DNA of 64,000 bases from Anaerolineae bacterium (GTDB taxonomy: Bacteria > Chloroflexota > Anaerolineae > Anaerolineales > UBA6663), in assembly GCA_037442085.1 (NCBI GenBank), contig JBBIQY010000002.1, forward strand, positions 6,583 to 70,582, read 5' to 3'. Positions 5,186 through 21,780 of this stretch are shown here, in pieces (positions within the stretch are counted from its first letter, which is position 1; each line of letters begins with the position of its first letter). The position numbers and the translations under genes are program-made. The notes below the pieces were generated by a model. It saw only the letters and a list, made by a program, of their open reading frames with translations, searched no databases and was not told the DNA's origin.

Positions 5186-7312
<2,127 letters not shown>

Positions 7313-8641: not shown

Positions 8642-8964
8642 AATGCCCGTACTGCGACTTTGCCGGCTCGCGCATGAAACTTCACCGGCATCTCGGCGAG
8701 GCGCACCTCGACCAGGTAACGACCAAGCACGACGCGGCGACGGGCAAGATGCGCTACGTCATCGGCTGTCCGGTATGCGGCCTGAAATACCAGCACGCCG
8801 TCAAGCCGCGCTACAGGGACGCGCGCTTCCTCGAAGAATACAGGGCCGAGATTGCGCTGGTGGCTTTCGACCAACTGCTTTACCATCTCGAAGAGAAACA
8901 CCCGGAACAAACTTCAAACTCAAAACTACGCCATTCAAACACCCCGCCTGAAGCTGCGGTTTGA
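8638..8964 (+). CDS. Small protein with two CxxC...HxxxxH (C2H2-like) zinc-finger motifs
   Basis: CPYCDF..HRHLGEAH and CPVCGL...YHLEEKH. ATGA overlap with the upstream stop. The C-terminal 15 aa are encoded by the hairpin left arm. Confidence 0.55.
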   Translation: MKCPYCDFAGSRMKLHRHLGEAHLDQVTTKHDAATGKMRYVIGCPVCGLKYQHAVKPRYRDARFLEEYRAEIALVAFDQLLYHLEEKHPEQTSNSKLRHSNTPPEAAV

Positions 8965-8972: not shown

Positions 8973-8991
8973 TTTTTCGCCAGAGGTGAAC

Positions 8992-9429
8992 ATGGCGCTC
9001 TGCAACAACTGCAACATCCCCGAGAACCTCTACTACTGGGTAGAGAAACACACCTGGTGCCGGCGCGAGTCGGATGGAACCGTCGTCGTCGGCATCACCG
9101 ACGTGGCCCAGCACCTCGCCAAATCCATCATCTCGGCCACGCCGAAAGAGGCGGGCAAGCCGATTAAGAAGGGCAAAAGCGCAGGCACGGTCGAGAGCGG
9201 CAAATGGGTCGGGCCGGTGACCGCGCCCGTAAATGGCACCATCACCGAAGTCAACGCCGCGCTCAAGACCAGGCCCGGCCTGTTGAATGCCGATCCCTAT
9301 GGCGAGGGCTGGTTCATCAAAATCAAACCCGACAACTGGGAGACGGACTCGGCCGATCTCGTCACGGGCGACGCCGGGATTGCGGCGTATCAGAAGTTCC
9401 TGGACGAGCAGGGCATCAAATGCGAATAA
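8992..9429 (+). CDS. lbpA: GcvH-like lipoate-binding protein (LbpA-like) 1
   Basis: GcvH fold motifs: VGITDVAQ, lipoyl-lysine context VESGKWVG, NADPYGEGWF. AGAGG lies 5 nt before ATG 8992. Confidence 0.85.
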   Translation: MALCNNCNIPENLYYWVEKHTWCRRESDGTVVVGITDVAQHLAKSIISATPKEAGKPIKKGKSAGTVESGKWVGPVTAPVNGTITEVNAALKTRPGLLNADPYGEGWFIKIKPDNWETDSADLVTGDAGIAAYQKFLDEQGIKCE

Positions 9430-9500
9430 CCCCAAACTCCCAAACCCAAAACTCAAATCGCAAACGATGGCTTGGGGTTTGGGGCTTGAAGTTTGCAGTT
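9429..9500 (+). repeat. Heptamer-array hairpin, family A variant, copy 6
   Basis: ccccaaactcccaaacccaaaactcaaa / cttggggtttggggcttgaagtttg. CCCCAAAC pairs with GTTTGGGG as a perfect 8 bp stem. It ends 3 nt before ATG 9503. Confidence 0.8.
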
Positions 9501-9502
9501 CA

Positions 9503-9952
9503 ATGATCTACTACGGCTGCGACATCCCCGAAGACCTGTTCTTCGACTTCGAGCGCGATCTGTGGGTGCGCTTCGAGGCCGACGGCGTGGCCACGCTGGG
9601 GATGACGGACACGGCTCAGACGCGCGGCGGAAAACTGGTGAACATCCAGTTCAAACGGGTCGGCAAACTGCTCAAACAAGGCCAGAGCGCCGCCATCATC
9701 GAGTCGGCCAAGTGGGTCGGGCCGTTCCCCATGCCGTTCAGCGGCGTGATCACCGCGACCAACGAAGCGACATTTCGCCGCGACATACTGATCGCCAACC
9801 GCGATCCTTACGGGGAAGGCTGGCTGGTCAAAGTGCAGCCGACGGCCATCGAAACCGAACGGGAGCATTTGATCACGGGCGAGGCCGCCGTCGCCAAATA
9901 CAAACACCGCATCGTCGAGCTGGGCCTGAAATGCTTTCGCTGCCTGGATTGA
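9503..9952 (+). CDS. lbpA: GcvH-like lipoate-binding protein (LbpA-like) 2
   Basis: LGMTDTAQ, IESAKWVG, NRDPYGEGWL. Paralog of the previous gene. Confidence 0.85.
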   Translation: MIYYGCDIPEDLFFDFERDLWVRFEADGVATLGMTDTAQTRGGKLVNIQFKRVGKLLKQGQSAAIIESAKWVGPFPMPFSGVITATNEATFRRDILIANRDPYGEGWLVKVQPTAIETEREHLITGEAAVAKYKHRIVELGLKCFRCLD

Positions 9953-9969: not shown

Positions 9970-10410
9970 ATGTCCACCAACGGTCACGACGCTTTTCCAC
10001 CCGAGCTTTACTACGACCGCGTGACGCACGTTTGGGCGCGGGACGATGGCGCGACCGTGACCATCGGCCTCGACGCGCTCGGCCTGGAGTCGCTCGGCGA
10101 CATGGCCTACCTCAGTTTGCAGGCCAGCGGCGTTCCGGTGCGACGCGGCGAGGCCATCGGCAGCTTGGAGGCCGCGAAGATGGTAGGGGATCTGATCGCG
10201 CCCGTCAGCGGCGTCATCGCCGCGCGCAACGAGGAGGTACTGCGCGACCCCGGCCTCATCAACCGCGACCCCTACCGCGCGGGCTGGCTCGTCCAGATTA
10301 CGCCTTCCGATTGGGCGCGTGAGTCCGCCGAACTGGTGCACGGCGCGGCTTTGACAGCCTGGGTGAAAGCGGAAGTCGAGCGGTATCGGATGCAGGGATG
10401 GATTAAGTGA
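9970..10410 (+). CDS. lbpA: GcvH-like lipoate-binding protein (LbpA-like) 3
   Basis: IGLDALG, LEAAKMVG, NRDPYRAGWL. Lacks the terminal cysteines of copies 1 and 2. Confidence 0.8.
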   Translation: MSTNGHDAFPPELYYDRVTHVWARDDGATVTIGLDALGLESLGDMAYLSLQASGVPVRRGEAIGSLEAAKMVGDLIAPVSGVIAARNEEVLRDPGLINRDPYRAGWLVQITPSDWARESAELVHGAALTAWVKAEVERYRMQGWIK

Positions 10411-10493: not shown

Positions 10494-11702
10494 ATGACAA
10501 CTTGGCGACTCATTACAGACGACAATGTCACCGCCTCCTTCGGCCTCGCCGCCGACGAGTGCCTGGCCAGGCGCGTGGGCGCGGGCCAGAGCCAGCCGAC
10601 TCTGCGGCTGTACACGTATCGCTCGCACTGCGCGCTCGTCGGACGCTTCCAGAATCTCGACAACGAAATTCAACGCGACTACTGCGAGGCGCACGGCGTC
10701 GCCCTCAACCGCCGGCCCACCGGCGGCGGCGCGATCCTCATGGGCCAGGACCAACTCGGCGTGGCGCTGACCCTCCCCGCGAGCGGCGACGACGCCTACA
10801 GCCGCGCCCGTGAACTCATGGGGCAATTCTCAGCCGGCATCGTCCACGCCCTCGAGGCGCTCGGCATAAGGGCCAACTTTCGGCGCAAGAACGATATCGA
10901 AGTCGGCGGCAAAAAGATCGTGGGGTTGGGAATCTACCGGGCGCACGGCCTCCCGCGACCCGATTCAGCGCCCTCAGAACCGTCGGCGACTCAGCGATCC
11001 GGCCTGCTCTTCCATGCTTCCCTGCTCGTCGGCCTCGACATCCCGCTGATGCTGCGCGTGCTCAAAACGCCGTTCGAGAAAATTTCGGACAAAGCGATCG
11101 CCACCGTCGCCGAGCGCGTTACGACGGTGCGCCGTGAAATCGGACGCGAGATTGAACTAAACGAAGTCCGCGCGCGAGTCGTCGAGGGTTATGCGGCCGC
11201 TTTCGGAGCCTCGCTCACTCCCGGCACATTCACCGGCGATGAGAGTCTCGCCATCTCCGATCTCCAATCTCAGAAGTACGACTCCCACGAGTGGGTGCAC
11301 CAAATCACTGCCGTCCCCGACGCGCTCGGCTCGGCCACCGTCAAAACGCCCGGCGGCCTGCTCGACGTCCGCGTGACCTTGGCGGGCAACACCATTAAAG
11401 CGGTATTCGTCGGCGGAGACTTCTTTGCCGCCGAGGGCGCGATCGCCGACCTCGAGGCCAGTCTGCGCTGGCACGCCGCCGAGCCGCGCGCCGTGGCCGC
11501 GACCCTCGCTCAGGCATACGCGAAACGCGCCAGCGATCTCGCCATGCTGCCGCTCGACTCGCTCACCCAGGCGATTCAACAAGCGGTTCGCCGCGCCCAA
11601 GTAGCCGAGTCTGCCGCGCGCGCCGACCCGTACGGGTGCTTTGTGAATCCCGATCCCCAACCGCAAACCTCGAAGGAGTTACACCCGAGGGTCGCGCTTT
11701 GA
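10494..11702 (+). CDS. Lipoate-protein ligase, two-domain sLpl(AB)-like
   Basis: BPL/LplA/LipB core motifs NRRPTGGGAILMGQDQL and GGKKIVGLG, plus an LplA C-terminal-like domain. Adjacent to the LbpA and LipS genes. Confidence 0.8.
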   Translation: MTTWRLITDDNVTASFGLAADECLARRVGAGQSQPTLRLYTYRSHCALVGRFQNLDNEIQRDYCEAHGVALNRRPTGGGAILMGQDQLGVALTLPASGDDAYSRARELMGQFSAGIVHALEALGIRANFRRKNDIEVGGKKIVGLGIYRAHGLPRPDSAPSEPSATQRSGLLFHASLLVGLDIPLMLRVLKTPFEKISDKAIATVAERVTTVRREIGREIELNEVRARVVEGYAAAFGASLTPGTFTGDESLAISDLQSQKYDSHEWVHQITAVPDALGSATVKTPGGLLDVRVTLAGNTIKAVFVGGDFFAAEGAIADLEASLRWHAAEPRAVAATLAQAYAKRASDLAMLPLDSLTQAIQQAVRRAQVAESAARADPYGCFVNPDPQPQTSKELHPRVAL

Positions 11703-11718
11703 AGTTTGGAGTTCGAGC
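11655..11718 (+). repeat. Degenerate family A hairpin, copy 8 (clear right arm only)
   Basis: The right arm tttgaagtttggagttcgag (11697-11718) is clear. The left partner ccccaaccgcaaacctcgaa is weak. Confidence 0.4.
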
Positions 11719-11728
11719 TTGCTCTGAT

Positions 11729-12622
11729 ATGCCTGAAATCACGTTTCACGCGCCCGGCCTCAAACGCTTCAAGACGACCGAGTACGCCGAACAGGAGGCG
11801 ACCCGTTTCGTGTCCATCAGCGTGACGGGGACTGAGTGCGCCCTGGCGTGTGAGCATTGCAAGACACATGTTCTCGAGGGCATGACGGCCCTGCCCCGTT
11901 TCGATGGCACGCTGTTCGATTTATGCTGCGAGCTGGCGGAACGCGGCGCGCGCGGGGTGCTGGTCTCCGGCGGCTGCGACAGGCGCGGGCGTGTCCCGCT
12001 CCTCCGCCACCTCCCGGATTTGATCCGCGTCCGCCGCGAACTTGGCTTCCTCATCCGCGTCCACCCCGGCCTGCCCGACGAGGAAACCGTCGCGGGCCTG
12101 GCCGAGGTTGGGATTGACGGCGCGATGGTGGACATCATCGGCGACGACGCGACCATCCGTGAGGTTTATCATCTCGACGCGACCATCGCCGAATATGAGG
12201 CTGTGCTGGAGCGGCTGGAACGCTACCAGGTGCCTGCCGTGCCACACATCATTCTGGGGTTACACTTCGGGCAGATGCGCGGCGAGTGGACGGCGCTCGA
12301 CATGATCACGCGCCACGCCCGGAAATTCCTTGTGCTTGTGATCCTCATGCCGCTCACCGGGACGCCCATGGTCGGCGTGACGCCGCCGCCCGTCTCGGAG
12401 ATTGCCCGGTTCTTCGCCCTTGCGCGCCGTGCCTTGCCCGCTACGCCGGTCATGCTCGGCTGTGCGCGCCCGCTCGGCAAAATCAAAATCGAGATTGATC
12501 GCGCCGCCGTGGACGCCGGGCTGAACGGCATTGCGTATCCGGCGGAAGGCATTATCGCCTACGCCCGCACGCGCGGCCTGACGCCAAAATTTGTGGATGC
12601 GTGTTGTGGAGTGCAGTGGTAG
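11729..12622 (+). CDS. Radical SAM protein, LipS1/LipS2-type lipoyl synthase candidate (which of the two is not resolved)
   Basis: CALACEHC is a CxxxCxxC motif. ~297 aa. Sits between the ligase and the second radical SAM gene. Confidence 0.7.
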   Translation: MPEITFHAPGLKRFKTTEYAEQEATRFVSISVTGTECALACEHCKTHVLEGMTALPRFDGTLFDLCCELAERGARGVLVSGGCDRRGRVPLLRHLPDLIRVRRELGFLIRVHPGLPDEETVAGLAEVGIDGAMVDIIGDDATIREVYHLDATIAEYEAVLERLERYQVPAVPHIILGLHFGQMRGEWTALDMITRHARKFLVLVILMPLTGTPMVGVTPPPVSEIARFFALARRALPATPVMLGCARPLGKIKIEIDRAAVDAGLNGIAYPAEGIIAYARTRGLTPKFVDACCGVQW

Positions 12623-12683
12623 CGAACAGTAGAGAGCGAGTGGCGGGTAGCCGATAGCCATCCGTCATCAGCCGAAGGAGTCT

Positions 12684-13766
12684 ATGGCGAAAGTCACGCT
12701 TTCCTCCAAAGAACAGGCCGAGCAGTTGCAGATCAGCCCGGAGTATGTTCGCATTTCGATGGCCGCCGCGATCGAGCTGGGCCTCAAGCCGGGGCGTATG
12801 TTCCGCGATGTTCACTGTGGCTGCATCAATCTGCTGCAAAACTATCCCGAAGGATGCTACGCCAACTGCTCGTATTGCGGGCTGGCCCGCGAACGGCCCG
12901 GCGCGCCGGAAGACAACACCTTCATCCGCGTGGCGTGGCCTCTTTTCCCGACCGACCTCGTCGCGGAAAAGATCGCCGAGCGCGAGGCGTGCATCGGGCG
13001 GGTGTGCATCGCTCAGGTGCAGGACCATCGCGCCTACGAGGATTTGATTGACATGATCGGGCGCGTGCGCCGATTGAGCGCCGTGCCCATCTCGGCGCTG
13101 GTCTCGGCGACCACGCTGAACGAAGAGCGGTTGAGCTGCCTCAAGGACGCGGGCGCAGACATTATTGGCGTCGGGCTGGACGCGGCCTCCGAAGCCGTGT
13201 TCTACAACACCCGCGGGCGGGGCGTCAGAGGGCCGCACGACTGGGTTCATCACTGGCAGATTGTCCGAGCCGCACGCCGCTTGTTCGGGCCGCTGAAAGT
13301 CAATTGCCACATCATCGTCGGCCTCGGCGAGACCGACCGCGACCTGGTCAATCTCTTCTACCAGCTCAAGTCGGAACAGATTGCCGGCTACCTGTTCTCG
13401 TTCAACCCGGAACCCGGCACGGCCATGCAGGCCACGCCGCGCGCGCCCATTCACCGCTGGCGACGGATTCAACTCACGAAACATCTCATCGAGCATCACG
13501 ACCTGTCGCCCGAGGCGATTGAATTCGACGCCGAAGGGAACATCGTCCGTCTCAACGCGCCCCAGCTGATGGTGGAGGTCGCCGTGAACACCGGTCTGCC
13601 GTTTATGACCAACGGCTGCCCCGACCGCAACGGCGTGATGGCCTGCAACCGCCCCTACGGCTCATACCGCCCCGGCGAAGAATTCCGCGACTATCCATTT
13701 TTGCCAAACGCCGATGATTTGATCGTCATCCGCCAGCAGATGCGATTGGAAGAAATCTGGCAGTGA
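12684..13766 (+). CDS. Radical SAM protein, BioB/LipS-type, second lipoyl synthase candidate
   Basis: CYANCSYCGL is a CxxxCxxC motif. C-terminal Cys-rich NGCPDRNGVMACNRP. GAAGGAG precedes the ATG. Confidence 0.7.
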   Translation: MAKVTLSSKEQAEQLQISPEYVRISMAAAIELGLKPGRMFRDVHCGCINLLQNYPEGCYANCSYCGLARERPGAPEDNTFIRVAWPLFPTDLVAEKIAEREACIGRVCIAQVQDHRAYEDLIDMIGRVRRLSAVPISALVSATTLNEERLSCLKDAGADIIGVGLDAASEAVFYNTRGRGVRGPHDWVHHWQIVRAARRLFGPLKVNCHIIVGLGETDRDLVNLFYQLKSEQIAGYLFSFNPEPGTAMQATPRAPIHRWRRIQLTKHLIEHHDLSPEAIEFDAEGNIVRLNAPQLMVEVAVNTGLPFMTNGCPDRNGVMACNRPYGSYRPGEEFRDYPFLPNADDLIVIRQQMRLEEIWQ

Positions 13767-13815
13767 TGTATTGCGAATTCCATGCGGCGAATGCCGCGCA
13801 GACGGAACACGCGCG

Positions 13816-14826
13816 ATGCCCTCCCCGATTCGTCTCCTGAGCCTCGGCGCTATCCACTGGCTCCGCACCCAGTCGGTCTATCACGCCCTGGCCGAGACGA
13901 TGACGGCGGGGTCGCCCGACACGATTGTGCTGACGCGGCCGGCGCAGCCCTATCTGTGCCTCGGCTACCATCAGGAATTGGAGGCGGTGCTCGATCGCGC
14001 GGCGTGCGCGGCGCTGGGCCTGCCCATCGTGCGGCGCAGGGTAGGCGGCGGCGCGACGTATCTTGACTCGGATCAACTTTTTTATCAGTGCCTGTTTCAT
14101 CACACGCGCGTCCCGGCGACCGTTAGCGGCGTATATGCGCAACTGCTGGCCGCGCCGGTGGCGACGCTGCGGGCGCTGGGCCTGAGCGTCGAGTTGCGGG
14201 GCGAGAACGAGATCGAGGTGGGGGGCGATCGCGATGGTCATCGCGCCGGGAAACGAATTGCCGGGATCGGCGGCGGCAGGATTGGGGAGGCAGCGGTGGT
14301 CGTCGGCAATATCCTGTTCGATTTTGACTATGAAGCGATGGCGCGCGCCTGGCGCGTCCCCTCGGAGTCGTTCCGCCGGTTGGCCGCCGAGGCCCTGCGC
14401 GAGTGCGTCACGACTCTGAGGCGCGAATTGCCGCGCCCCGTCCCGCCCGATGACGTTCAGGCCGTCCTGATTTACGAATTCGCCCGCGCCCTCGGCCGTC
14501 CGGTGAAGCCCGGCGAGCTGACGCCGCAGGAGGCGCGCAAAATTGGCGAGCTCGACCGGCGCCTCGTCTCCACAAAATGGCTGAACCTGCAGGCCAACGG
14601 CGCGAAGCCGATGACGGCGCTCAAAATCTCGCGCGGCGTCTTCATCCACGCCGCCGAAGCGAAGATCGCAAACTACAAAGTGCGCGCGGCCTTTCGCGTT
14701 CGCGACGACGTGATCGAGCGGACGATGCTGGAAAGCGAACCGGAGCGCGACTGGCGAGAGGCAGCAGAAAACTTGAGGGGGACGAAAGTGAGAGAATGGG
14801 TGCGGGGGGTGGAGGCGCAAATATGA
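13816..14826 (+). CDS. LplA/LipB-superfamily paralog 2 (two-domain, motifs intact)
   Basis: VRRRVGGGATYLDSDQLFY and GKRIAGIGGG, plus a C-terminal domain resembling the LplA C-domain. Confidence 0.7.
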   Translation: MPSPIRLLSLGAIHWLRTQSVYHALAETMTAGSPDTIVLTRPAQPYLCLGYHQELEAVLDRAACAALGLPIVRRRVGGGATYLDSDQLFYQCLFHHTRVPATVSGVYAQLLAAPVATLRALGLSVELRGENEIEVGGDRDGHRAGKRIAGIGGGRIGEAAVVVGNILFDFDYEAMARAWRVPSESFRRLAAEALRECVTTLRRELPRPVPPDDVQAVLIYEFARALGRPVKPGELTPQEARKIGELDRRLVSTKWLNLQANGAKPMTALKISRGVFIHAAEAKIANYKVRAAFRVRDDVIERTMLESEPERDWREAAENLRGTKVREWVRGVEAQI

Positions 14827-15572
14827 TCGCCCCCGGCGCCCTGCGCCTGCTCAACCTCGGCCCCACCGCGTGGGCGCGGACGCAATCCGTGTACCGCGCC
14901 ACCGCCGAATTGTTTCCAGCCGACGGCCGGGGCGCAGTAATCTTCGCTCAATCGCTGCACCCCTATCTCACGCACGGCGTCCAGCAGTCTGCCTCGGAGA
15001 CGTTCGACCTGGCGGCGTGTGAGCGCCTGGGCCTGCCGGTGGTGCGCCGACCGTTCCCCGGCAGCGCCGAATACTGTGACGTGAACCAATTGCTGTTTCA
15101 GTGGATTCTGCCGCCCCCCGTCGGGGCGAGGCACGCGACGTTCCTGCGGGTGGCCACGGCAGTGCTGGCCGCGTTGCAGGCGTTCGGCCTCGCCGCCGAT
15201 TACGACGGGGCGGGACGGTTTGCGGTGAAAGGCGCGCGTCTGGGAACGCTTGCAGGTGGGCGATATGGGGCGGCGCTGGTGTGCCTTGGGGCGGTGTATC
15301 TGGGATATGACCCGCAGCGCCTGGCCCAGCTCGAGCGCGCGCCGCGCCTCGAGAGAACCACATCGTTGTGGGCCGAGGCCCCGCGCCCGCTCTCGCCCGA
15401 GATGGTGCAGGCGGCCCTCCTCGAGCACTTCGCGCGCACGCTGGGTCGGCCCATCGTGCGCGATACGCCGCGCGTGCCGGAGACGCAGGCGGCGAAACGC
15501 CTCGAAGCCGAGCTGCTTGGCGTAGAATTGGGAGACCTGCCGCCGGCAGAGGCCGGGCTGGACGGTGATTGA
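14823..15572 (+). CDS. LplA/LipB-superfamily paralog 3, N-domain only, glycine motif degenerate
   Basis: Aligns to paralog 2 (LRLLNLGP.., LGLPVVRRP..), but GGG is replaced by PGS in VRRPFPGSAEYCDVNQL. ATGA overlap with paralog 2. Confidence 0.6.
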   Translation: MIAPGALRLLNLGPTAWARTQSVYRATAELFPADGRGAVIFAQSLHPYLTHGVQQSASETFDLAACERLGLPVVRRPFPGSAEYCDVNQLLFQWILPPPVGARHATFLRVATAVLAALQAFGLAADYDGAGRFAVKGARLGTLAGGRYGAALVCLGAVYLGYDPQRLAQLERAPRLERTTSLWAEAPRPLSPEMVQAALLEHFARTLGRPIVRDTPRVPETQAAKRLEAELLGVELGDLPPAEAGLDGD

Positions 15573-15593: not shown

Positions 15594-15611
15594 GGTGCGC
15601 GAAAGCGCACC
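15594..15611 (-). terminator. GC stem with GAAA tetraloop; the T-tract is on the minus strand only
   Basis: ggtgcgc-gaaa-gcgcacc is preceded on the plus strand by aaaaaaga, so the minus strand reads stem + TCTTTTTT. Confidence 0.45.
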
Positions 15612-15685: not shown

Positions 15686-16777
15686 ATGCCCTCCCAAGAC
15701 GAAATCCTGAAAGCCCTCTCGCGGGTGCAAGAACCCGAGCTCCATCGTGACCTCGTCTCGCTCAACATGATCCGCGATCTGAAAATCACCGACGGGTCGG
15801 TGCAGTTCACGGTCATGCTCACTACGCCCGCCTGCCCGCTGCGAGGCCGCATCGAGCGTGAGTGCCGCGAGGCGGTGCTGGCCGTCCCCGGCGTGAAGGA
15901 AGTCGCGATCAGGTTCGACGCGAACGTGGTGCGCGACGCCCGAATCGGGAGGGGCGGCCCCGAAGGCCGGCCTCTGCCGTTTCGCAACACCATCGCCGTC
16001 GCCTCCGGCAAAGGCGGCGTGGGTAAGACCACGGTCGCAGTCAACCTCGCCATCGCCCTCGACCGCCTCGGCGCGCGCGTCGGCCTGCTCGATGCGGACA
16101 TCTACGGCCCCAACGCGCCGATAATGTTGGGAGCGCAAGGCAGCCCGCGCGTCGCCAACAACCGTCTCCTGCCGCTCAACGCCTACGGCTTGAAAGTCAT
16201 GAGCATGGGCTTTCTGGTCAAGCCGGAGCAGGCCGTGGTGTGGCGCGGGCCGATGTTGCACTCCGCGCTCAGCCAGTTCCTCGGCGACGTGGAATGGGGC
16301 GACCTTGACTATCTGGTGATTGACCTCCCGCCGGGCACGGGCGACGTGCCACTCTCGCTTGCCCAGCTCCTGCCGCTCACCGGGGCCGTCATCGTCACCA
16401 CCCCCCAGGACGTGGCGCTGGCCGACGTGCGCAAAGGGATGACGGCGTTCAACCAGCTCAACGTCCCGCTCCTCGGCGTGATCGAGAACATGAGTTATTT
16501 CGTCTGCCCGCACTGCGGCGAGCGCACCGACATCTTCTCGCATGGCGGCGGGCGGCATGCAGCGGAGGAACTCGGCCTGCCGTTCCTCGGCGAGGTGGCC
16601 CTTGACCCGGCCATCCGCTCCGGCGGCGATGACGGCCAGCCCATCGTTGCCGTCGCCCCCCACTCGCCGCAGGCCCAATCCATCACCGCCATCGCAGGCG
16701 CGCTCGCAGCCAGGATCAGCGTGCTCAACCTGCAGCGCGAACAGGAAGGGCTGATTCAAATCACGGAGATTGGGTGA
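15686..16777 (+). CDS. apbC: Mrp/ApbC/NBP35-family Fe-S cluster carrier ATPase with N-terminal DUF59-like domain
   Basis: Deviant Walker A VASGKGGVGKTT, CPHCG cluster-ligand motif, N-terminal VQEPELHRDLVSLNMI. Confidence 0.9.
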   Translation: MPSQDEILKALSRVQEPELHRDLVSLNMIRDLKITDGSVQFTVMLTTPACPLRGRIERECREAVLAVPGVKEVAIRFDANVVRDARIGRGGPEGRPLPFRNTIAVASGKGGVGKTTVAVNLAIALDRLGARVGLLDADIYGPNAPIMLGAQGSPRVANNRLLPLNAYGLKVMSMGFLVKPEQAVVWRGPMLHSALSQFLGDVEWGDLDYLVIDLPPGTGDVPLSLAQLLPLTGAVIVTTPQDVALADVRKGMTAFNQLNVPLLGVIENMSYFVCPHCGERTDIFSHGGGRHAAEELGLPFLGEVALDPAIRSGGDDGQPIVAVAPHSPQAQSITAIAGALAARISVLNLQREQEGLIQITEIG

Positions 16778-16804
16778 AGGAGAGTGGAGCTTGAGGAGCG
16801 CCCC

Positions 16805-18352
16805 ATGAACTACGGTTTCGTCATTGACAACCGCAAGTGCATCGGCTGTCATGCCTGCTCGACCGCCTGCAAATCCGAGAATGAAGTGCCGCTCGGCGTC
16901 AATCGCACGTGGGTGAAGTACACGGAGAAAGGCGTCTTCCCTAACACGCGCCGCTACTTCCAGGTGACGCGCTGCAATCATTGCGCCAACCCGCCGTGCG
17001 TGCACATCTGCCCGGTCACGGCCATGTACCAGCGCACGGACGGCATCGTCGAGTTCGACCCAGCGCGCTGCATCGGCTGCAAAGCCTGCATGCAGGCCTG
17101 CCCCTACGACGCCATCTACATTGACCCCGACTCGCACACGGCGGCGAAATGCCACTACTGCGCGCATCGAACCGACGTCGGCCTCGAGCCGGCCTGCGTG
17201 ATTGTGTGCCCGGAACATGCGATCATCGCCGGCGACATGGACGATCCCCAATCCGAAATTGCTCGCGTGCTGGCGACGCAACAGGTGCGCACGCGCAAGC
17301 CGGAGCAGGGCACACGCCCCAAACTCTTCTACATTGACGCCGAGGAATCCTCCATCGTCCCGACGCTCGCGACGCAGGAGGGCGGGATGTTGTGGGCCGC
17401 ATGGCCCGATCACAGCGCCGGCCACTGGCGCGGGCCGATCCACTTCAGCGAGGGCAACATGGCAAGCGCGCTCGTCAACGCCGCCGCCGCGCCGCGCGAG
17501 ACATACAACGTCCCGCACAAGATCCCGTGGCACTGGCAGGTGCCGGCGTATCTCGTCGCCAAATCCATCGGCGCCGGGGCGTTCATCGTCGCCGGCCTCG
17601 GCCTCGCGCTCGGTTTGCTTCCGGCCACGCTATTCTTCACCACCATCGCAACGTTTCTCTCGCTTCTTTTCATCGGCCTCAATACCGGCCTCCTGGTCTG
17701 GGACCTGGATCGCCCCGACCGCTTCTGGACGATCCTGATCCGCCCGCAATGGAAGTCGTGGCTGGCGCGCGGGGCATTCATCCTCGTCGGCTTCTCCGGC
17801 GTCGGCGGCCTGTTCTTCCTCGGTCAATTGCTCAATCTCCAATTCTCGAATCTGCTGTTGTGGCCCGGCGTCGTCCTCGCCGTCCTCTCGGCGACGTACA
17901 CGGCGTTTCTCTTCACACAGGCCGAGGGTCGCGACCTGTGGCAGAGCACGCTCCTGCCGTGGCACATGTTCGTGCAGGCGATGATGGCCGGAGCGGCAGC
18001 GTTGTTGATCGCCGGCCTGTTCTTCGATCTGGCGCCCGAAGCGACGCGTGTTCTGGCGTGGACGTTCGGCCTGAGCCTGCTCGTCAACCTTGCCCTCACG
18101 CTGGGGGGCGAGTTCGCCGTGCCACACGCGAGCGCCGTGGCGGCCGCCGCTGCGCATCTGATCACGCGCGGGCGTTACCGGAATCACTACCGGGGCAGCC
18201 TCGTCTTCGGATTGGGTCTGCCGCTGGCTCTCGTCGCCCTGGCGAGCGACTCGCCTGCCGCCTTAGCCATTGCCGGCGCCCTGTCGCTTGTTGGGCTGTT
18301 CGCTTACGAATGGGCGTTCGTGATGGCGCCGCAGGAAGTGCCGAACAATTGA
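16805..18352 (+). CDS. Fusion of a 4x[4Fe-4S] PsrB/DmsB/NrfC-like subunit with a NrfD/PsrC-like integral membrane subunit
   Basis: CIGCHACSTAC, CNHCANPPCVHICP, CIGCKACMQACP and CHYC...CVIVCP, followed by ~300 aa with about 8 hydrophobic helices. No signal peptide. GAGGAG lies 6 nt before ATG 16805. Confidence 0.8.
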   Translation: MNYGFVIDNRKCIGCHACSTACKSENEVPLGVNRTWVKYTEKGVFPNTRRYFQVTRCNHCANPPCVHICPVTAMYQRTDGIVEFDPARCIGCKACMQACPYDAIYIDPDSHTAAKCHYCAHRTDVGLEPACVIVCPEHAIIAGDMDDPQSEIARVLATQQVRTRKPEQGTRPKLFYIDAEESSIVPTLATQEGGMLWAAWPDHSAGHWRGPIHFSEGNMASALVNAAAAPRETYNVPHKIPWHWQVPAYLVAKSIGAGAFIVAGLGLALGLLPATLFFTTIATFLSLLFIGLNTGLLVWDLDRPDRFWTILIRPQWKSWLARGAFILVGFSGVGGLFFLGQLLNLQFSNLLLWPGVVLAVLSATYTAFLFTQAEGRDLWQSTLLPWHMFVQAMMAGAAALLIAGLFFDLAPEATRVLAWTFGLSLLVNLALTLGGEFAVPHASAVAAAAAHLITRGRYRNHYRGSLVFGLGLPLALVALASDSPAALAIAGALSLVGLFAYEWAFVMAPQEVPNN

Positions 18353-18402
18353 ATCGCTCAAACGCTGACGACGCTGATGACGCTGAAAACCAGTGCTTCA
18401 GT

Positions 18403-18780
18403 GTGCTCGGGTATCCGCACTCGGAACTCTCGGCCCGGATCATCGCCGTCGCGCAGGAAGTGCATCGCACGCTCGGCCCCGGTTTCAAGGAGGTCTTCTA
18501 CCAGCGGGCGAGGTCGAAGGAATTGCAGGCCGATGGATAGGGACACGCCCGCGAAGTCTGGATTGACGTCTACTACAAAGGCGAAAAGTTGGGCCGCAAG
18601 GGCGTGGATTTTGTGGTTGATGTCTGCCTGGTCGAAACGAAAGCCAAAGCCGCATTGGAAGACGCAGATTACATCCAGACACTCTCCTATCTCAAAGCTT
18701 CGGGCTTCGAGGTGGGGCTGCTCATCAACTTCGGCGGCCCCAAACTGGAAGTCAGGCGCTTGATTAACCAGAAACGCTGA
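18403..18780 (+). pseudogene. GxxExxY-family (PD-(D/E)XK-like) small protein gene interrupted by an in-frame TAG
   Basis: HRTLGPGFKEVFY (GxxExxY) ...LQADG-TAG(18538-18540)-GHAREVWIDVYYKGEKLG...VETKA...LLINFG all lie in one frame. No ATG; GTG at 18403. Confidence 0.65.
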
Positions 18781-18830
18781 TTGCCTCTCCACTCTCAGCG
18801 TCCTCAGCATAATCAGCGCCTCAACGATAT
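18773..18830 (+). repeat. Family B element (AACGCTGATT-loop-TCAGCGTCCTCAGC-ataaTCAGCG)
   Basis: aacgctgattgcctctccactctcagcgtcctcagcataatcagcgcc shares both ends with 7271-7310. Confidence 0.6.
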
Positions 18831-18843
18831 CAAAGGACCCGGC

Positions 18844-21732
18844 ATGACAGACACAATCACCCGCCTCCCCCTCCAACTCACCGACGCCGGCGAGCGCCTG
18901 CAACAATACCCGCCGCCTGAAAAATGGGATGACTGGGTAGAGTGGGATCACAAGCTGTGGCCGAAGAAGGTTCCGAAGCATTACATGCTCGTGCCGACGG
19001 TGTGCTTCAACTGCGAGTCGGCTTGCGGGTTGTTGGGCTGGGTGGACAAAGAGACGCTACAGGTGCGCAAGTTCGAGGGCAACCCGGTGCATGCCGGCAG
19101 CCGGGGCCGCAACTGCGCCAAGGGGCCGGCGACGATCAACCAGGTCAACGACCCCGACCGCATCCTGTATCCGCTCAAGCGCGCCGGCAAGCGCGGCGAG
19201 GGCAAATGGGTGCGGGTGACGTGGGCCGAGGCGCTGAAGGACATTGGCGGCCGAATCCGCACAGCGTTTCAGGAAGGACGACACAACGAGATCATGTATC
19301 ACGTTGGCCGGCCCGGCCACGACGGCGTGATGGAGTGGGTGCTTTTGGCATGGGGCATTGACGGCCACAACTCGCACACCAACATCTGCTCGTCGAGCGC
19401 GCGGACGGGCTACGCCTTCTGGATGGGCTTCGACCGCCCCAGCCCCGATCACGCAAACGCCAACGTCATCCTGCTCATCAGCAGCCACCTCGAGACCGGG
19501 CACTACTTCAACCCGCATGCCCAGCGCATCATCGAGGGCAAGATGCGCGGCGCGAAGTTGATCGTGATGGACACGCGCCTCTCCAACACCGCCTCGCTGG
19601 CCGATACGTGGATCGCGCCCTGGCCCGGCTCGGAGCCCGCCATCCTGCTTGCCATCGCCAACCACCTCATCACCACCGGCCGGTACAACCGCGAGTTCGT
19701 GAGGCGGTGGGTCAACTGGGAGGAATATCTCAACTTCAGAATTCAAACTTCAAGCCCCCAATCTCCCGTCTCCAACCTCCCGATTTCTTTCGAAGCCTTT
19801 GAGGCCGCGTTGAAAGAACGCTATGCCAAATATACGTTCGAATACGCAGCCAAAGAGTCGGGCGTGGAGGCAGACATTCTGCGCCGCATTGCGGAGGAGG
19901 TCGCCAATTGTGGCGGGAAGCTGGCCACGCATAACTGGCGCAGCGCCGCGGCGGGCAACCTGGGCGGGTGGCAGGTGGCGCGTTGCCTGTTCTTCCTGAA
20001 CGTGCTCACCGGCAGCATCGGCGTGGAGGGCGGCACCTCGGCCAACGCCTGGGACAAATGGGTGCCGCGCCCGCACAAGTTTCCGCCGCACAGCAAACGC
20101 TGGAACGAGCTGTCGTGGCCGCGTGAGTATCCGCTGTCGTACTTCGAGATGAGCTTCCTGCTGCCGCATTTCCTCAAGGAAGGGCGCGGCAAACTCGACG
20201 TGTACTTCACCCGCGTCTACAACCCACTGTGGACGAACCCCGACGGCTTCACCTGGCTCGAGGCGCTGCGCGACGAGTCGAAGATCGGCTGTCACGTGGC
20301 GCTCACGCCGACGTGGAGCGAGTCGGCCTGGTGGGCCGATTATGTGCTGCCGATGGGCCACGGCTCCGAGCGGCACGATCTGATGAGCCAGGAAACGCAC
20401 GCCGGGCAGTGGCTCGCCTTCCGCCAGCCGGTGAGGCGCGTGGCGCTGGAGCGCCTGGGCAGGAAAGTGAATCGCACCTACGAGGCCAACCCCGGGCAGG
20501 TGTGGGAAGAAACCGAGTTCTGGATTGATCTGAGTTGGGAGATTGACCCCGACGGCACGCTGGGCATCCGCCAATACTTCGAGTCGCCCTATCGCCCCGG
20601 CGAGCGCCTGACCGTGGACGAATACTACGGCTGGATGTTCGAGAACACCGTCCCCGGTCTGCCGGAGGCCGCGGCCAAAGAGGGGCTGACGCCCCTGGCA
20701 TACATGCGCAAGTACGGCGTGTTCGAGATTCGCAAAGGGGCGCTGGCCGAATACGAGCGCGCGTTGACCGCCGAAGAAATGGCCGGCGCGCAGGTGGACG
20801 CGGCGACCGGCATCATCTACACCCAGGCGCCCGCCGCGCCGCCTCAAAACATCGTGCCAACCCCCGCCCCCGTCTCGACGGACAGGGGGCGGCCCATCGG
20901 CGTGATGGTGGACGGCCAACCCCGGTTCGGCTTCCGCACCCCCTCGCGCAAACTCGAATTCTTCTCTTCGACTCTGCACCAGTGGGGCTGGCCCGAATAT
21001 GCCTTGCCCGATTACATCGAAAGCCATGTGCATCCCAGTCGGCTCAACCGCGAGGCCAACGAGTTCGTCCTGCTTTCGACCTATCGCCTCCCGACCCTGA
21101 TTCATACCCGCAGCGCGAACGCCAAGTGGCTCGTCGAAATCTCGCACTCCAACCCGACCTGGATTCACACTTCGGACGCGGAGCGGCTCGGCGTGCGCAC
21201 CGGCGACCTGGTGCGCGTTCAAACCGAGATCGGCTATTTCGTGGATAAAGTCTGGGTCACCGAGGGCATCCGCCCCGGCGTCGTCGCCTGCTCCCATCAC
21301 CTCGGGCGCTGGCGGCTGGCCGAGGGCGACGGCACCAACCGGATCGCGTCCGCGCTCGTCCAACTAAACGAGTCGGACGGCGAATGGAATCTGCAGCAGG
21401 TCCACGGCGTCCAGCCGTACAAGTCCAGCGACCCCGACACCGAACGCATCTGGTGGAGCGATGCGGGCGTGCACCAGAATCTCACCTTTCCCGTTCAGCC
21501 CGATCCAATCAGCGGGATGCACTGCTGGCATCAGAAGGTGACGGTGACACGCGCCCAGGCCGGCGACCGCTACGGCGACGTGCACGTGGACACGCACAAG
21601 GCGCACGCGGTCTACAAACGCTGGCTGGCCATGACCCGCCCGCCGACCGGCGAATGGCGGCGACCCCATTGGATGCTGAGGCCGTTCCGGCCGGATGCGA
21701 GCGCCTACCGAATTATGAATTATGAAGGCTGA
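18844..21732 (+). CDS. Molybdopterin (bis-MGD) oxidoreductase catalytic subunit without Tat signal, PsrA/SoeA-like
   Basis: N-terminal [4Fe-4S] motif CFNCESACGLL...C and the NCAKG motif. 962 aa, the size of a DMSO-reductase-family enzyme. No RRxF signal peptide. Confidence 0.8.
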   Translation: MTDTITRLPLQLTDAGERLQQYPPPEKWDDWVEWDHKLWPKKVPKHYMLVPTVCFNCESACGLLGWVDKETLQVRKFEGNPVHAGSRGRNCAKGPATINQVNDPDRILYPLKRAGKRGEGKWVRVTWAEALKDIGGRIRTAFQEGRHNEIMYHVGRPGHDGVMEWVLLAWGIDGHNSHTNICSSSARTGYAFWMGFDRPSPDHANANVILLISSHLETGHYFNPHAQRIIEGKMRGAKLIVMDTRLSNTASLADTWIAPWPGSEPAILLAIANHLITTGRYNREFVRRWVNWEEYLNFRIQTSSPQSPVSNLPISFEAFEAALKERYAKYTFEYAAKESGVEADILRRIAEEVANCGGKLATHNWRSAAAGNLGGWQVARCLFFLNVLTGSIGVEGGTSANAWDKWVPRPHKFPPHSKRWNELSWPREYPLSYFEMSFLLPHFLKEGRGKLDVYFTRVYNPLWTNPDGFTWLEALRDESKIGCHVALTPTWSESAWWADYVLPMGHGSERHDLMSQETHAGQWLAFRQPVRRVALERLGRKVNRTYEANPGQVWEETEFWIDLSWEIDPDGTLGIRQYFESPYRPGERLTVDEYYGWMFENTVPGLPEAAAKEGLTPLAYMRKYGVFEIRKGALAEYERALTAEEMAGAQVDAATGIIYTQAPAAPPQNIVPTPAPVSTDRGRPIGVMVDGQPRFGFRTPSRKLEFFSSTLHQWGWPEYALPDYIESHVHPSRLNREANEFVLLSTYRLPTLIHTRSANAKWLVEISHSNPTWIHTSDAERLGVRTGDLVRVQTEIGYFVDKVWVTEGIRPGVVACSHHLGRWRLAEGDGTNRIASALVQLNESDGEWNLQQVHGVQPYKSSDPDTERIWWSDAGVHQNLTFPVQPDPISGMHCWHQKVTVTRAQAGDRYGDVHVDTHKAHAVYKRWLAMTRPPTGEWRRPHWMLRPFRPDASAYRIMNYEG
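19731..19790 (+). repeat. In-CDS heptamer tract inside the molybdoenzyme gene
   Basis: caacttcagaattcaaacttcaagcccccaatctcccgtctccaacctcccgatttcttt encodes NFRIQTSSPQSPVSNLPISF. Confidence 0.6.
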
Positions 21733-21780
21733 AGGAAGAAGGAAGCAATGGAGATTCAGCCTTCATCCTTCAGCCTTCAT
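21722..21780 (+). repeat. Perfect 15-bp inverted repeat (ATGAAGGCTGAAGGA / TCCTTCAGCCTTCAT) bracketing a gene junction
   Basis: The left arm (21722-21736) contains the upstream TGA. The loop holds a purine-rich SD and ATG 21748. The right arm (21766-21780) lies in codons 7-11 of the next gene and is half-duplicated at 21755-21766. Confidence 0.85.

Follow-up and report, generated by a model that had tools for sequence, protein, structure and literature searches.

Two conserved lipoate ligase look-alikes lacking the catalytic lysine in the lipoate assembly module of a type II sHdr locus

The window, the whole 64,000-nucleotide stretch of DNA analyzed here, carries a type II sHdr (shdrC1B1AHB3-etfAB-emo) locus for sulfur oxidation from an Anaerolineae-like Chloroflexota genome. 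Positions 10494-15572 are the carrier-maturation part of this locus, an sHdr-associated lipoate assembly module in which sLpl(AB), LipS1 and LipS2 are followed by two more LplA-superfamily genes joined by an ATGA overlap. The three LplA-superfamily proteins are referred to below as paralogs 1, 2 and 3. The features of the locus are as follows:

3..986, + strand: sHdrA, C-terminal part (Pfam Pyr_redox_2); the gene begins upstream, outside the window
1078..1833, + strand: sHdrH-like protein, 251 aa, flanked by sHdrA and sHdrB3; also a called gene in locus record L001
1923..3209, + strand: sHdrB3, an HdrC/HdrB fusion with 4Fe-4S dicluster and CCG domains (Pfam Fer4_8/9 + CCG)
3259-4047, + strand: EtfB (Pfam ETF/ETF_alpha)
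4149-5108, + strand: EtfA (Pfam ETF/ETF_alpha)
5219..7312, + strand: EMO-like membrane Fe-S/CCG protein (ETF:menaquinone oxidoreductase), Fer4 + CCG after a hydrophobic N-terminus
8986..9429, + strand: LbpA1, GcvH-like lipoate-binding protein (PF01597, E 9e-38; LbpA1 orthogroup)
9500..9952, + strand: LbpA2, GcvH-like (PF01597, E 3e-30; LbpA2 orthogroup)
9970..10410, + strand: LbpA3, GcvH-like (PF01597, E 2.5e-27)
10494..11702, + strand: paralog 1, canonical sLpl(AB) lipoate:protein ligase (LplA-B_cat + Lip_prot_lig_C)
11729..12622, + strand: LipS1, radical-SAM lipoyl synthase subunit (NF053742)
12684..13766, + strand: LipS2, radical-SAM lipoyl synthase subunit (NF053743)
13816..14826, + strand: paralog 2, R-clade protein with a two-domain Lpl(AB) fold (PF21948, E 1.5e-31)
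14254..14256, + strand: CGA codon for R147 of paralog 2, the site of the catalytic lysine
14823..15572, + strand: paralog 3, degenerate LplA-like protein with the N-domain only (PF21948, E 1.3e-12)
15686..16777, + strand: Mrp/ApbC-type Fe-S cluster carrier ATPase (Pfam ParA (NUBPL) + FeS_assembly_P)
16784-18352, + strand: PsrB-NrfD fusion, conserved downstream module
18781-21732, + strand: molybdopterin oxidoreductase with no obvious twin-arginine signal, conserved downstream module
21748-22716, + strand: NarJ-like chaperone, conserved downstream module

The sHdrA fragment is identical to a 361-aa gene in L001, where TusA, DsrE, DsrE, sHdrC1 and sHdrB1 stand before sHdrA. A Pfam scan assigned the sHdrH-like protein to no family. 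By the published definition of type II sHdr, sHdrB3 is the marker of the type and emo is placed after etfAB, as is the case for the gene at 5219..7312 (PMC11094781).

Paralog 1 is a regular member of the sLpl(AB)/archaeal-type Lpl(AB) ligases that serve the LipS1/LipS2 pathway (Cao et al. 2018; Tanabe et al. 2023). It matches PF21948 (LplA-B_cat) at E 3e-37 as well as Lip_prot_lig_C, keeps RRPTGGGA, N133, D134 and the catalytic K141, and forms with the sLpl(AB) of other loci a clade of their own in a neighbor-joining tree without support values. LipS1 scores 235.4 bits against NF053742 (cut-off 230); the best match of LipS2, over its full length, is NF053743 at 203.9 bits, below the cut-off of 270. 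The original prediction of an sHdr-associated sLpl(AB)-LipS1-LipS2 module with two extra LplA-like genes, the last two coupled by an ATGA, is borne out by these matches, by those of all three paralogs to PF21948 and by the overlap at 14823-14826. It had also singled out the lack of a LipT-like flavoprotein. Pfam scans of all sizeable ORFs revealed no LipT-like FAD oxidoreductase in the window, and no LipT-like gene is found in the 6.4 kb upstream of it (L001). This absence is unremarkable, however, because only ~53% of LipS1/S2-containing bacteria encode LipT (PMC10332631).

Paralog 2 had been described as carrying intact RRxxGGG and lysine motifs. The first part of this description stands, as the R-clade, named for its arginine at the K133 position, retains RRxxGGG (RRRVGGGA in the window), N121, G136 and G150, as well as the glycine-rich strand and an LplB-like domain at the C-terminus. 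The second does not. HMMER alignment to T. acidophilum LplA places R147 of paralog 2 at the site of E. coli LplA K133 and T. acidophilum K145, and K146, the lysine earlier taken as catalytic, falls at a variable K/R/Q position. The R147 position is Arg in 120/120 close homologues in the multiple sequence alignment, where the adjacent K146 position varies between R and K, in 38/38 clade representatives and in all 24 locus copies of paralog 2; among 133 representatives obtained by 50% clustering, the R147 position is R in 29 and K in 104. The homologous codon across the 24 locus records is CGC, CGA, CGG, CGT or AGG, mostly two mutational steps from Lys. In addition, E132 replaces the catalytic Asp (D122 to E in 37/38 of the R-clade), and two lysines of the adenylate-binding loop have been lost. 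The AF2 model of paralog 2 (pLDDT 96) adopts a two-domain LplA fold, and a Foldseek search with it returned LplA ligases. To our knowledge, the catalytic lysine is universal throughout the BPL/LplA/LipB superfamily. The standard catalytically dead LplA is N121A/D122A/K133A, changes that abolish LplA activity (PMC12674116). With K133 to R and D122 to E, assignment of paralog 2 as a canonical ligase is not supported.

The R-clade is monophyletic in the neighbor-joining tree (without support values) and has members in several phyla. In 21 of 22 distinct loci, paralog 2 lies directly 3' of lipS2; this placement of the R-type gene is seen in Chloroflexota, Rokubacteria, Deltaproteobacteria and Calditrichaeota. 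Paralog 2 resembles sLpl(AB) in fold, in its two domains and in its neighborhood (lbpA, lipS1, lipS2, shdr), and shares the RRxxGGG loop, the N121 equivalent and the glycine-rich strand, but its identity to the sLpl(AB) encoded in the same operon is only ~26%, and it belongs to another clade and has Arg for Lys, Glu for Asp and neither of the two adenylate-loop lysines. Its nearest sequence relatives, at 33-45% identity, are instead the Lys-type LbpA ligases encoded in other type II sHdr loci (for example, P0168, P0170 and the 361-aa gene of L024/L025; ~350-370 aa; GGGAxYLD). These share its domain architecture and, like it, are associated with LbpA and type II shdr genes, and in one set of loci paralog 3 follows them, as it follows paralog 2 in the window. 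They differ from the R-clade in keeping K133 (105/105) and D122 (103/105), and in that their type II sHdr loci lack lipS genes, whereas the R-clade occurs together with lipS1 and lipS2. The LipL and LipM models of NCBIfam gave no match to paralogs 2 or 3, and in the tree (again without support values) the two proteins group with Lpl(AB)-type ligases, which places them outside the known LipL/LipM clades.

Paralog 3 starts on the stop codon of paralog 2 (ATGA, 14823-14826) with a GGAGG Shine-Dalgarno-like sequence upstream. As predicted from the replacement of GGG by PGS in an N-domain-only protein, paralog 3 is very probably non-catalytic, a truncated derivative without any catalytic determinant: it has RRPFPGSAEY in place of the ligase RRxxGGGA (PG[GS] for GGG in the family), the equivalents of N121, D122, K133 and G136 are all altered, a 12-residue stretch of the adenylate-binding loop is missing, and the C-terminal domain is absent. 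Relative to sLpl(AB), it has thus gone further than paralog 2, which keeps the GGG loop and both domains. The family comprises ~31 clusters, with members of the paralog 2 family as closest relatives (35-42% identity). Its dN/dS of 0.12-0.21 indicates purifying selection, similar to sLpl(AB) (0.15-0.20). The AF2 model (pLDDT 91) has single-domain LplA of T. acidophilum as its best structural match in Foldseek (TM 0.80-0.83). Paralog 3 is always encoded directly 3' of a two-domain paralog or with no more than an insertion between the two, with a 4-bp overlap in the window, L022 and L026. Gene order and this overlap suggest that paralog 3 is most likely a non-catalytic, translationally coupled subunit of the two-domain paralog just upstream. 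We compare the pair to T. acidophilum LplA-LplB, a heteromeric lipoate ligase from two adjacent genes; there, however, LplA is intact and the small partner is a C-terminal-domain protein, whereas here it is a degenerate N-domain copy.

The reading that we favor, though tentatively, is that sLpl(AB) is the working ligase, paralog 2 a non-canonical acyl/lipoyl handler acting with LipS1/S2, and paralog 3 its non-catalytic partner. Paralog 1 would load octanoate or lipoate onto LbpA in an ATP-dependent reaction, and LipS1 and LipS2 would then insert two sulfurs on the loaded carrier. The R-clade would have arisen from the ligases that serve LbpA in type II sHdr systems. Because the lipoyl/nucleotide-binding loop is kept while Lys, Asp and the loop lysines are exchanged, we infer that paralog 2 still binds the octanoyl/lipoyl ligand, is no longer a canonical adenylating ligase, and works with LipS1/LipS2 on acylated LbpA. 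It is most likely a LIPT1- or LipL2-type acyl/lipoyl transferase, which would use acyl-AMP from sLpl(AB) or take the finished cofactor from LbpA3 and relay it to further carriers; alternatively, it may be a substrate-presenting partner for the lipoyl synthases. We found no description of paralogs 2 or 3 in the literature searched; two conserved ligase look-alikes without the catalytic lysine point to undescribed helper proteins in a recently discovered lipoate pathway.

A ligase paired with a transferase paralog is known from P. falciparum, where LipL1 is the ligase and LipL2 a lipoyl-AMP:N-lysine lipoyltransferase (PMC8600131). LipL2 and LIPT1 resemble the proposed paralog 2 in having the LplA fold, in making no acyl-AMP of their own and in transferring the acyl group to particular carriers after an activating enzyme; mammalian LIPT1, a two-domain LplA-like transferase/amidotransferase that cannot adenylate, also retains the C-terminal domain. 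The likeness to bovine LIPT1 (2e5a) is at the level of fold, with 15% identity and no close sequence relationship, and LIPT1 and LipL2 have no linkage to radical-SAM lipoyl synthase genes. The B. subtilis octanoyltransferase LipM and GcvH:E2 amidotransferase LipL belong to the same superfamily and move octanoyl or lipoyl groups without ATP; the cofactor is built first on a dedicated GcvH-type carrier, for which LbpA3 could be a counterpart. LipM and LipL are, however, single-domain proteins of ~280 aa with a Cys-Lys dyad, whereas paralog 2 has two domains, no extra cysteine conserved across its clade and no lysine. Counting against a transferase role, the transferases of the superfamily that we know of (LIPT1, LipL2, LipL, LipM and LipB) all retain the lysine.

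Less probable, but the nearest competitor, is that paralog 2 is still an ATP-dependent ligase in which Arg and Glu stand in for Lys and Asp, a second lipoate/octanoate:LbpA ligase of other specificity (for instance, octanoate from de novo synthesis versus salvaged lipoate, or LbpA3 versus LbpA1/2). Class II aminoacyl-tRNA synthetases, which have the same fold, use Arg to stabilize the adenylation transition state. The Lys to Arg exchange is conservative, and Arg could still do so here, which weighs against our favored reading. All ligand-binding motifs and the C-terminal domain needed for LplA-type adenylation are strictly conserved, and the closest relatives of paralog 2 are evident LbpA ligases. 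In Rokubacteria locus L014 (lbpA-lbpA-lipS1-lipS2-paralog 2), no sLpl(AB) lies between lbpA and lipS1, so the R-type protein may be the sole attaching enzyme there, a further point against the favored reading. Against a second ligase stand the lysine found in all 105 Lys-type relatives, all seven sLpl(AB) and the aligned solved LplA ligases, and the loss of LplA activity upon mutation of N121, D122 and K133 (PMC12674116), two of which, with both adenylate-loop lysines, have changed in lockstep in the R-clade. A second ordinary ligase would also be redundant, since a canonical sLpl(AB) shares the operon in 14/15 loci.

We consider it somewhat less likely still that paralog 2 is non-catalytic and, in effect a third synthase subunit, binds the octanoyl- or mercapto-octanoyl-lysine arm of LbpA so as to pass it to LipS1 and LipS2 or from one of them to the other. 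Its tight synteny with lipS2 rather than sLpl(AB), the restriction of R-type genes to places where LipS1/S2 occur (loci with Lys-type ligases have neither lipS nor R-type genes), and the replacement of catalytic residues in a protein that keeps the binding loop are consistent with such a role. The invariance of Arg and Glu, however, suggests a chemical rather than merely structural function, the R-type gene of L018 (Arenicellales) lies away from any lipS gene, and LipS1/S2 of Proteobacteria and archaea function without a paralog 2-like protein (PMC10332631).

The three LbpAs and three LplA-like genes of the window had raised the possibility of one-to-one carrier:ligase pairs, which gene counts across loci refute and which we regard as very improbable. 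L005, L006, L008, L010 and L013 have three LbpAs but just two LplA-like genes, L002, L004, L012 and L016 have one LbpA with two LplA-like genes, and a second architecture combines two LbpAs with one ligase and paralog 3, itself devoid of catalytic determinants. A weaker matching exists at the level of cassettes. The LbpA3 orthogroup and the LipS1-LipS2-paralog 2 set co-occur perfectly (together in 15 loci, both missing in 6-7), with sLpl(AB) also in all of these loci except L014, and paralog 3 is found only in loci having LbpA1 and LbpA2. The relay from LbpA3 is made less attractive by the single-LbpA loci (L016; L002, L004, L012), which still carry paralog 2.

That both extra paralogs are functionless duplicates, in decay or not expressed, as the lost catalytic residues and truncated paralog 3 might suggest, can be dismissed almost entirely, given dN/dS of 0.12-0.26 for the two families, like that of neighboring functional genes, reading frames that are unbroken in dozens of contigs across several phyla, an Arg at R147 maintained through synonymous codon turnover, confident AF2 models, and the Shine-Dalgarno-like sequence and overlapping start of paralog 3.

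Downstream, the Mrp/ApbC-type ATPase follows paralog 3 in ~8/14 loci and is found in none of the loci without paralog 3. The PsrB-NrfD/molybdopterin oxidoreductase/NarJ-like module (16784..22716) is kept 3' of the lipoate genes in almost every related locus.

The lipoate-assembly genes are encoded on the plus strand of the window together with genes of the sulfur-oxidation system sHdr. The closest database proteins carry names that assign the organism to Chloroflexota, Anaerolineae/Anaerolineales.

Genes of the sHdr and lipoate-assembly locus (window positions, strand, product)
3-986, +, sHdrA, 3' part
1078-1833, +, sHdrH-like protein
1923-3209, +, sHdrB3, HdrC/HdrB fusion
3259-5108, +, EtfB and EtfA
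~5219-7312, +, EMO-type membrane Fe-S/CCG protein
7322-7771, +, 149-aa protein, no Pfam/NCBIfam family
7811-8641, +, TAT-signal 'putative cyclase', kynurenine-formamidase-like (PF04199)
8638-8964, +, small zinc-finger-like protein, ~100 aa (weak zf-Di19 match)
8986-9429, 9500-9952, 9970-10410, +, three GcvH-like LbpA genes (lipoate-binding carriers)
10494-11702, +, paralog 1, sLpl(AB) ligase (LplA-B_cat and Lip_prot_lig_C)
11729-12622, +, LipS1 (NF053742)
12684-13766, +, LipS2 (NF053743 best match, Radical_SAM domain)
13816-14826, +, paralog 2 (LplA-B_cat)
14823-15572, +, paralog 3 (LplA-B_cat), start overlapping the paralog 2 stop as ATGA
15686-16777, +, Mrp/ApbC Fe-S carrier
16784-18352, +, PsrB-NrfD fusion
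18781-21732, +, molybdopterin oxidoreductase
21748-22716, +, NarJ-like chaperone

Type II sHdr is defined by shdrC1B1AHB3 and etfAB in a single syntenic cluster (PMC11094781). The upstream gene order was read from L001, a second contig with an identical sHdrB3, and is histidine kinase, LuxR-type regulator, TusA, two DsrE, sHdrC1, sHdrB1, sHdrA and sHdrH. L001 and the window together thus hold TusA, DsrE, DsrE, sHdrC1, sHdrB1, sHdrA, sHdrH, sHdrB3, EtfB, EtfA and the EMO-like protein in order, which is the type II arrangement. In every type II locus examined, the genes for the 149-aa and zinc-finger proteins occur as a conserved pair located between emo and lbpA1, with 59-88% identity among Chloroflexota loci. 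The cyclase gene (7811-8641) separates this pair and is not at that spot in loci L005, L006, L008, L010, L013 and L021-L026; it looks like a lineage-specific insertion. Nearly all related type II sHdr loci have, downstream of the lipoate genes, the module of PsrB-NrfD, molybdopterin oxidoreductase and NarJ-like genes (16784-22716 in the window; also L004-L011, L021-L035 and L040). The N-terminus of the molybdopterin oxidoreductase has no evident twin-arginine signal, and its best NCBIfam match, PhsA, scores far below the cut-off. In its arrangement, the module resembles a SoeABC-type sulfite dehydrogenase that faces the cytoplasm; if it is one, it would use up the sulfite produced by sHdr.

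Of the two proteins of the radical-SAM lipoyl synthase, LipS1 passes the NF053742 cut-off of 230 with 235.4 bits; LipS2, at 203.9 bits, lies below the NF053743 cut-off of 270, yet this model is its full-length best match and the protein contains a Radical_SAM domain. Insertion of the second sulfur was inefficient in the heterologous system used by Tanabe et al. 2023. The original prediction that the window encodes no LipT-like FAD oxidoreductase was borne out by Pfam scans of every sizeable open reading frame, which found no FAD/NAD(P)H oxidoreductase besides sHdrA and EtfAB. No LipT-like gene was found in the 6.4 kb upstream of the window, as read from L001, or within 10 kb on either side of the homologous genes in related loci. 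This absence is not unusual, because LipT is encoded by only ~53% of LipS1/S2-containing bacteria (PMC10332631, Tanabe et al.).

Paralogs 2 and 3 belong to the LplA superfamily and are not a new kind of system. The PF21948 catalytic domain, of the BPL/LplA/LipB fold, was detected in all three paralogs (E-values of 3e-37, 1.5e-31 and 1.3e-12 for paralogs 1, 2 and 3, respectively), and the top Foldseek matches of paralogs 2 and 3 are LplA structures. The TIGR00545 scores of 144.5, 68.9 and 19.4 bits all lie under the equivalog cut-off of 280, and the 550-bit cut-off of the NCBIfam LplAB equivalog NF053751 is not reached either; these failures say little, because even the canonical sLpl(AB) falls under the cut-off. 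Neither paralog 2 nor paralog 3 matched the LipL/LipM models NF047857 and NF053589 at E ≤ 0.01, and paralog 1 did so weakly, with 21 and 16 bits. LipL and LipM are single-domain proteins of ~280 aa, whereas paralog 2 has two domains. The Cys-Lys dyad of LipL/LipM is not present in paralog 2: the lysine is gone, and no cysteine is conserved specifically across its Arg-bearing clade (the R-clade, below), C92 being Cys in only 20 of 133 representatives and C64 occurring family-wide. A Cys/His metal or thioester site was considered and dropped, as conservation of C92, H95 and H96 is limited to the close Chloroflexota family and does not extend to the whole R-clade. No Pfam or NCBIfam model is specific for the paralog 2 or the paralog 3 family, and members of both carry the generic database names 'lipoate-protein ligase A' or 'hypothetical protein'.

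The three paralogs differ in their active-site motifs. Paralog 1 has the lipoate-binding loop RRPTGGGA and, at the positions of the E. coli LplA trio N121/D122/K133, residues N133, D134 and K141. K141 lies in the universal [RK]-K-[ILV]-x-G context and opposite the catalytic lysine of solved ligases. The protein also carries the C-terminal, LplB-like accessory domain that adenylation requires (PF10437, E 7e-5), and in a neighbor-joining tree it clusters with ligases encoded between lbpA and lipS1 elsewhere. Judged from these features, paralog 1 is a regular sLpl(AB). Paralog 2 retains the family-invariant loop RRRVGGG and has N131/E132/R147 in place of the trio, while paralog 3 has RRPFPGS (family consensus RRPFPGG) and G131/R132/R139. 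The catalytically dead standard for LplA is the N121A/D122A/K133A mutant (PMC12674116).

The lysine motif of paralog 2 had originally been described as intact, with the lysine of GKRIAG taken as catalytic. Four alignments instead place the catalytic position at the next residue, R147. HMMER aligned K145 of T. acidophilum LplA with R147; profile alignments to S. pneumoniae LplA gave the same register; the second lysine of GGKKIVG in the operon's own sLpl(AB) aligns with R147; and among 120 close homologues R147 is invariant while K146 is mixed (R in 49, K in 43, another residue in the remainder). For residue numbering we used what we take to be the E. coli LplA sequence; the K133 mapping is independent of it, because HMMER alignments to the PDB sequences 2ars and 1vqz give it. 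This lysine is conserved in the characterized ligases and the close relatives that were compared and, to our knowledge, throughout the LplA superfamily.

Among 1.84 billion cluster representatives searched, 187 relatives of paralog 2 were recovered at E ≤ 1e-30. Among 133 aligned full-length relatives, the catalytic position is Arg in 29 and Lys in 104. In a neighbor-joining tree (BLOSUM62 distances, no bootstraps or support values) the Arg-bearing sequences form one clade, hereafter the R-clade. The position of E. coli D122 is Glu in 37/38 R-clade members versus Asp in 103/105 of the nearest relatives that keep the lysine (Lys-type), and the two groups further differ by V77 to T, S135 to A and A139 to G. 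Two adenylate-binding-loop lysines, kept in E. coli LplA, all sLpl(AB) and about half of the Lys-type relatives, are replaced in the R-clade by Ser/Gly/Asp and Leu. N121, the RRxxGGG loop, G136 and G150 are invariant in the R-clade. Across 24 locus records the R147 codon is CGC, CGA, CGG, CGT or AGG, and the use of five codons indicates that the arginine is old and selectively maintained. The AlphaFold model of paralog 2 is very confident (pLDDT 96.2) and aligns along its entire length with two-domain LplA ligases; the C-terminal 100 residues, which have no Pfam match, thus form an LplB-like domain. Judged by its active-site residues, paralog 2 does not qualify as a canonical ligase.

The genomic context of the R-clade is highly consistent. 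In a sample skewed to Chloroflexota metagenomes, the R-type gene lies directly 3' of lipS2 in 21 of 22 distinct loci, a count made without L007, whose R-type gene touches the end of its contig, and without the duplicate records L003, L023 and L029. These loci include many contigs from Anaerolineae and other Chloroflexota, the Ardenticatenaceae genome L002, and MAGs of Rokubacteria (L014), Deltaproteobacteria (L015) and Calditrichaeota (L016), the last with a complete type II shdr cluster. The sole exception is the Arenicellales chromosome L018, in which the R-type gene adjoins a short-chain dehydrogenase gene and no lipS gene is nearby. A FabG-like adh_short dehydrogenase gene is directly beside the R-type gene in two unrelated loci (L004 11051-11872 and L018 9079-9858); this adjacency may be accidental or may point to acyl-chain metabolism.

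In a tree, the LbpA proteins of all these loci separated into three orthogroups. LbpA3 is encoded in 15/15 distinct loci with lipS1-lipS2-paralog 2 and in none of the 6-7 loci without them; the recurrent unit is therefore lbpA3-slpl(AB)-lipS1-lipS2-paralog 2. In the Rokubacteria locus L014 the sLpl(AB) gene is not at its usual place in the unit. Lys-type relatives are also found next to carrier genes: the gene for P0170 is flanked by dsrE genes and sits shortly upstream of lbpA-shdrC1B1A, that for P0168 lies 3' of emo-orf-Znf-lbpA-lbpA, and a 361-aa Lys-type protein is encoded 3' of lbpA1-lbpA2 in L024, L025 and related contigs. No lipS genes were found in the clusters of these three relatives. 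Their association with LbpA indicates that the R-clade is a derived branch of the type II sHdr LbpA ligases that occurs alongside LipS1/LipS2 and a separate sLpl(AB). More distant Lys-type relatives (34-42% identity to paralog 2) adjoin genes for a GcvH-like protein and an HdrB/C-like CCG protein in loci L017, L019 and L020. This CCG protein is only ~30% identical to sHdrB3, and these loci may represent a different Hdr-like/lipoate-carrier system.

Paralog 3 belongs to a small family of ~31 clusters with 55-96% identity, whose next best matches are the paralog 2 family at 35-42%. The original description of paralog 3 as a degenerate, N-domain-only protein with PGS in place of GGG holds: the protein is 249 aa long and lacks the C-terminal domain, GGG is changed to PG[GS], N121 to G, D122 to Q or R and G136 to T, and 12 adenylate-binding-loop residues are deleted. 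The lysine position is Arg in 8 of 11 sampled sequences. The model remains confident (pLDDT 91) and best matches the single-domain T. acidophilum LplA, with a TM-score of 0.80-0.83. Two architectures were observed. In the first, the order is lbpA1-2-3, slpl(AB), lipS1, lipS2, paralog 2, paralog 3 (window, L021, L022, L026, L027, L034); in the second, lbpA1-2 is followed by a Lys-type ligase gene and paralog 3, with no lipS (L024, L025, L030, L032, L035-L038). Paralog 3 is always downstream of a two-domain protein, whether Arg- or Lys-type, and directly so except in L021 and L032, which have a ~3-kb insertion. A 4-bp overlap with the upstream gene is found in the window, L022 and L026. The best reading of paralog 3 is that of a non-catalytic subunit.

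Several features border paralog 3. The insertion between paralogs 2 and 3 in L021 (6958-9869) consists of two AAA+/VWA genes (Mg-chelatase/MoxR-like, 351 and 597 aa), and that in L032, at the same junction upstream of paralog 3, measures ~2.9 kb. An Mrp/ApbC gene lies 3' of paralog 3 in ~8/14 loci and is absent where paralog 3 is absent. Strict coupling of the two, perfect in the first four loci, was rejected on the larger set; the link is frequent rather than strict. A Rieske [2Fe-2S] protein is encoded between mrp (or paralog 3) and the PsrB-NrfD gene in L022 (8989-9663), L025, L028, L031, L034 and L037, and is absent from the window. In L005, a 290-aa open reading frame that overlaps the paralog 2 terminus was considered as a diverged paralog 3 and proved unrelated. 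It is a member of another conserved family, ~275-294 aa in length, without a Pfam match and with 42-71% identity between loci, encoded immediately after paralog 2/3 or after the NarJ-like gene (L005 10978-11850, L021 18036-18863, L024 14742-15626, L026 8645-9466). The 113-bp gap between paralog 3 and mrp contains a perfect 7-bp GC-rich hairpin, GGTGCGC-GAAA-GCGCACC (window 15594-15611). On the minus strand a T-run follows it and it scores as an intrinsic terminator, with no credible minus-strand gene there; on the plus strand an A-run precedes it.

Together, the data show a conserved and selected remodeling of an LplA active site, in tight linkage with the LipS1/LipS2 synthase and a single carrier orthogroup. 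Paralog 2 probably binds the octanoyl/lipoyl ligand, because the binding loop, glycine-rich strand and C-terminal domain are strictly conserved. It is probably not the operon's adenylating ligase, because sLpl(AB) fills that role. Its most probable job would be to transfer or present acylated LbpA together with LipS1/LipS2. Mammalian LIPT1 offers one precedent for such transfer. Another is the P. falciparum LipL1/LipL2 pair (PMC8600131). We tentatively suggest that the R-clade may constitute a new LipS1/LipS2-linked lipoate-assembly class, either a relay transferase or an obligatory third synthase component, with paralog 3 as its pseudoenzyme regulatory subunit; we consider this possible rather than probable. 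As a relay, paralog 2 would move lipoyl or octanoyl groups without ATP from LbpA3, a dedicated assembly carrier, to the working sHdr carriers. It would then parallel, in bacterial sulfur oxidizers, the relay of GcvH-LipL or GCSH-LIPT1, with Arg/Glu chemistry in place of Lys. As a synthase component, it would be the obligatory third member of the two-protein lipoyl synthase.

The main rival to a role in transfer or presentation is that Arg and Glu still allow ligase chemistry, making paralog 2 a second ligase of different specificity. The Rokubacteria locus L014, without sLpl(AB), speaks for this reading. A purely non-catalytic chaperone is a further possibility. One-to-one matching of carriers and ligases, as suggested in the original prediction, is contradicted by the data. 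Decay of paralogs 2 and 3 is contradicted by pairwise dN/dS against the L021 and L022 orthologues, which is 0.20-0.26 for paralog 2 and 0.12-0.21 for paralog 3, near the 0.15-0.20 of sLpl(AB) (LipS2, 0.10-0.12). Paralog 3 is not decaying and is under purifying selection.

The sLpl(AB)-LipS1/LipS2 route dates only from work of 2018-2023; current descriptions give it three proteins and, optionally, LipT. In the pathway-defining papers and in full-text searches, no further LplA-like gene, whether second or third, was found described for shdr/lbpA loci, nor was a Lys-to-Arg (K133R-type) ligase homologue. The present comparison adds a fourth protein in strict synteny, of LplA fold with Lys replaced by Arg, that travels with LipS1/LipS2 and one LbpA orthogroup in Chloroflexota and at least four other lineages. 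If paralog 2 is a transferase or synthase partner, it would change the model of sulfur-oxidation carrier maturation and provide a natural experiment on the role of the conserved lysine in the superfamily. Paralog 3 offers a clear pseudoenzyme, fully degenerate, selectively constrained and paired with an Arg-type or Lys-type protein. For annotation, ligase copy number in type II sHdr organisms is inflated when pipelines and HMM-based surveys score these genes as 'lipoate-protein ligase A'.

Elsewhere, the window encodes two giant sensor histidine kinases. The first (26090-34006, minus strand; 2638 aa) has ~14 GAF domains, and the second (39844-45687, plus strand; 1947 aa) combines MASE11 and five GAF domains with a kinase core and a receiver; further HAMP/GAF proteins are encoded between them at 35181-39901. 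A PLP-dependent enzyme of the PALP family with a fused C-terminal response-regulator receiver domain is encoded at 45688-47385, and an IS4/IS5-family transposase (DUF4096 and DDE_Tnp_1) at 61911-62741.
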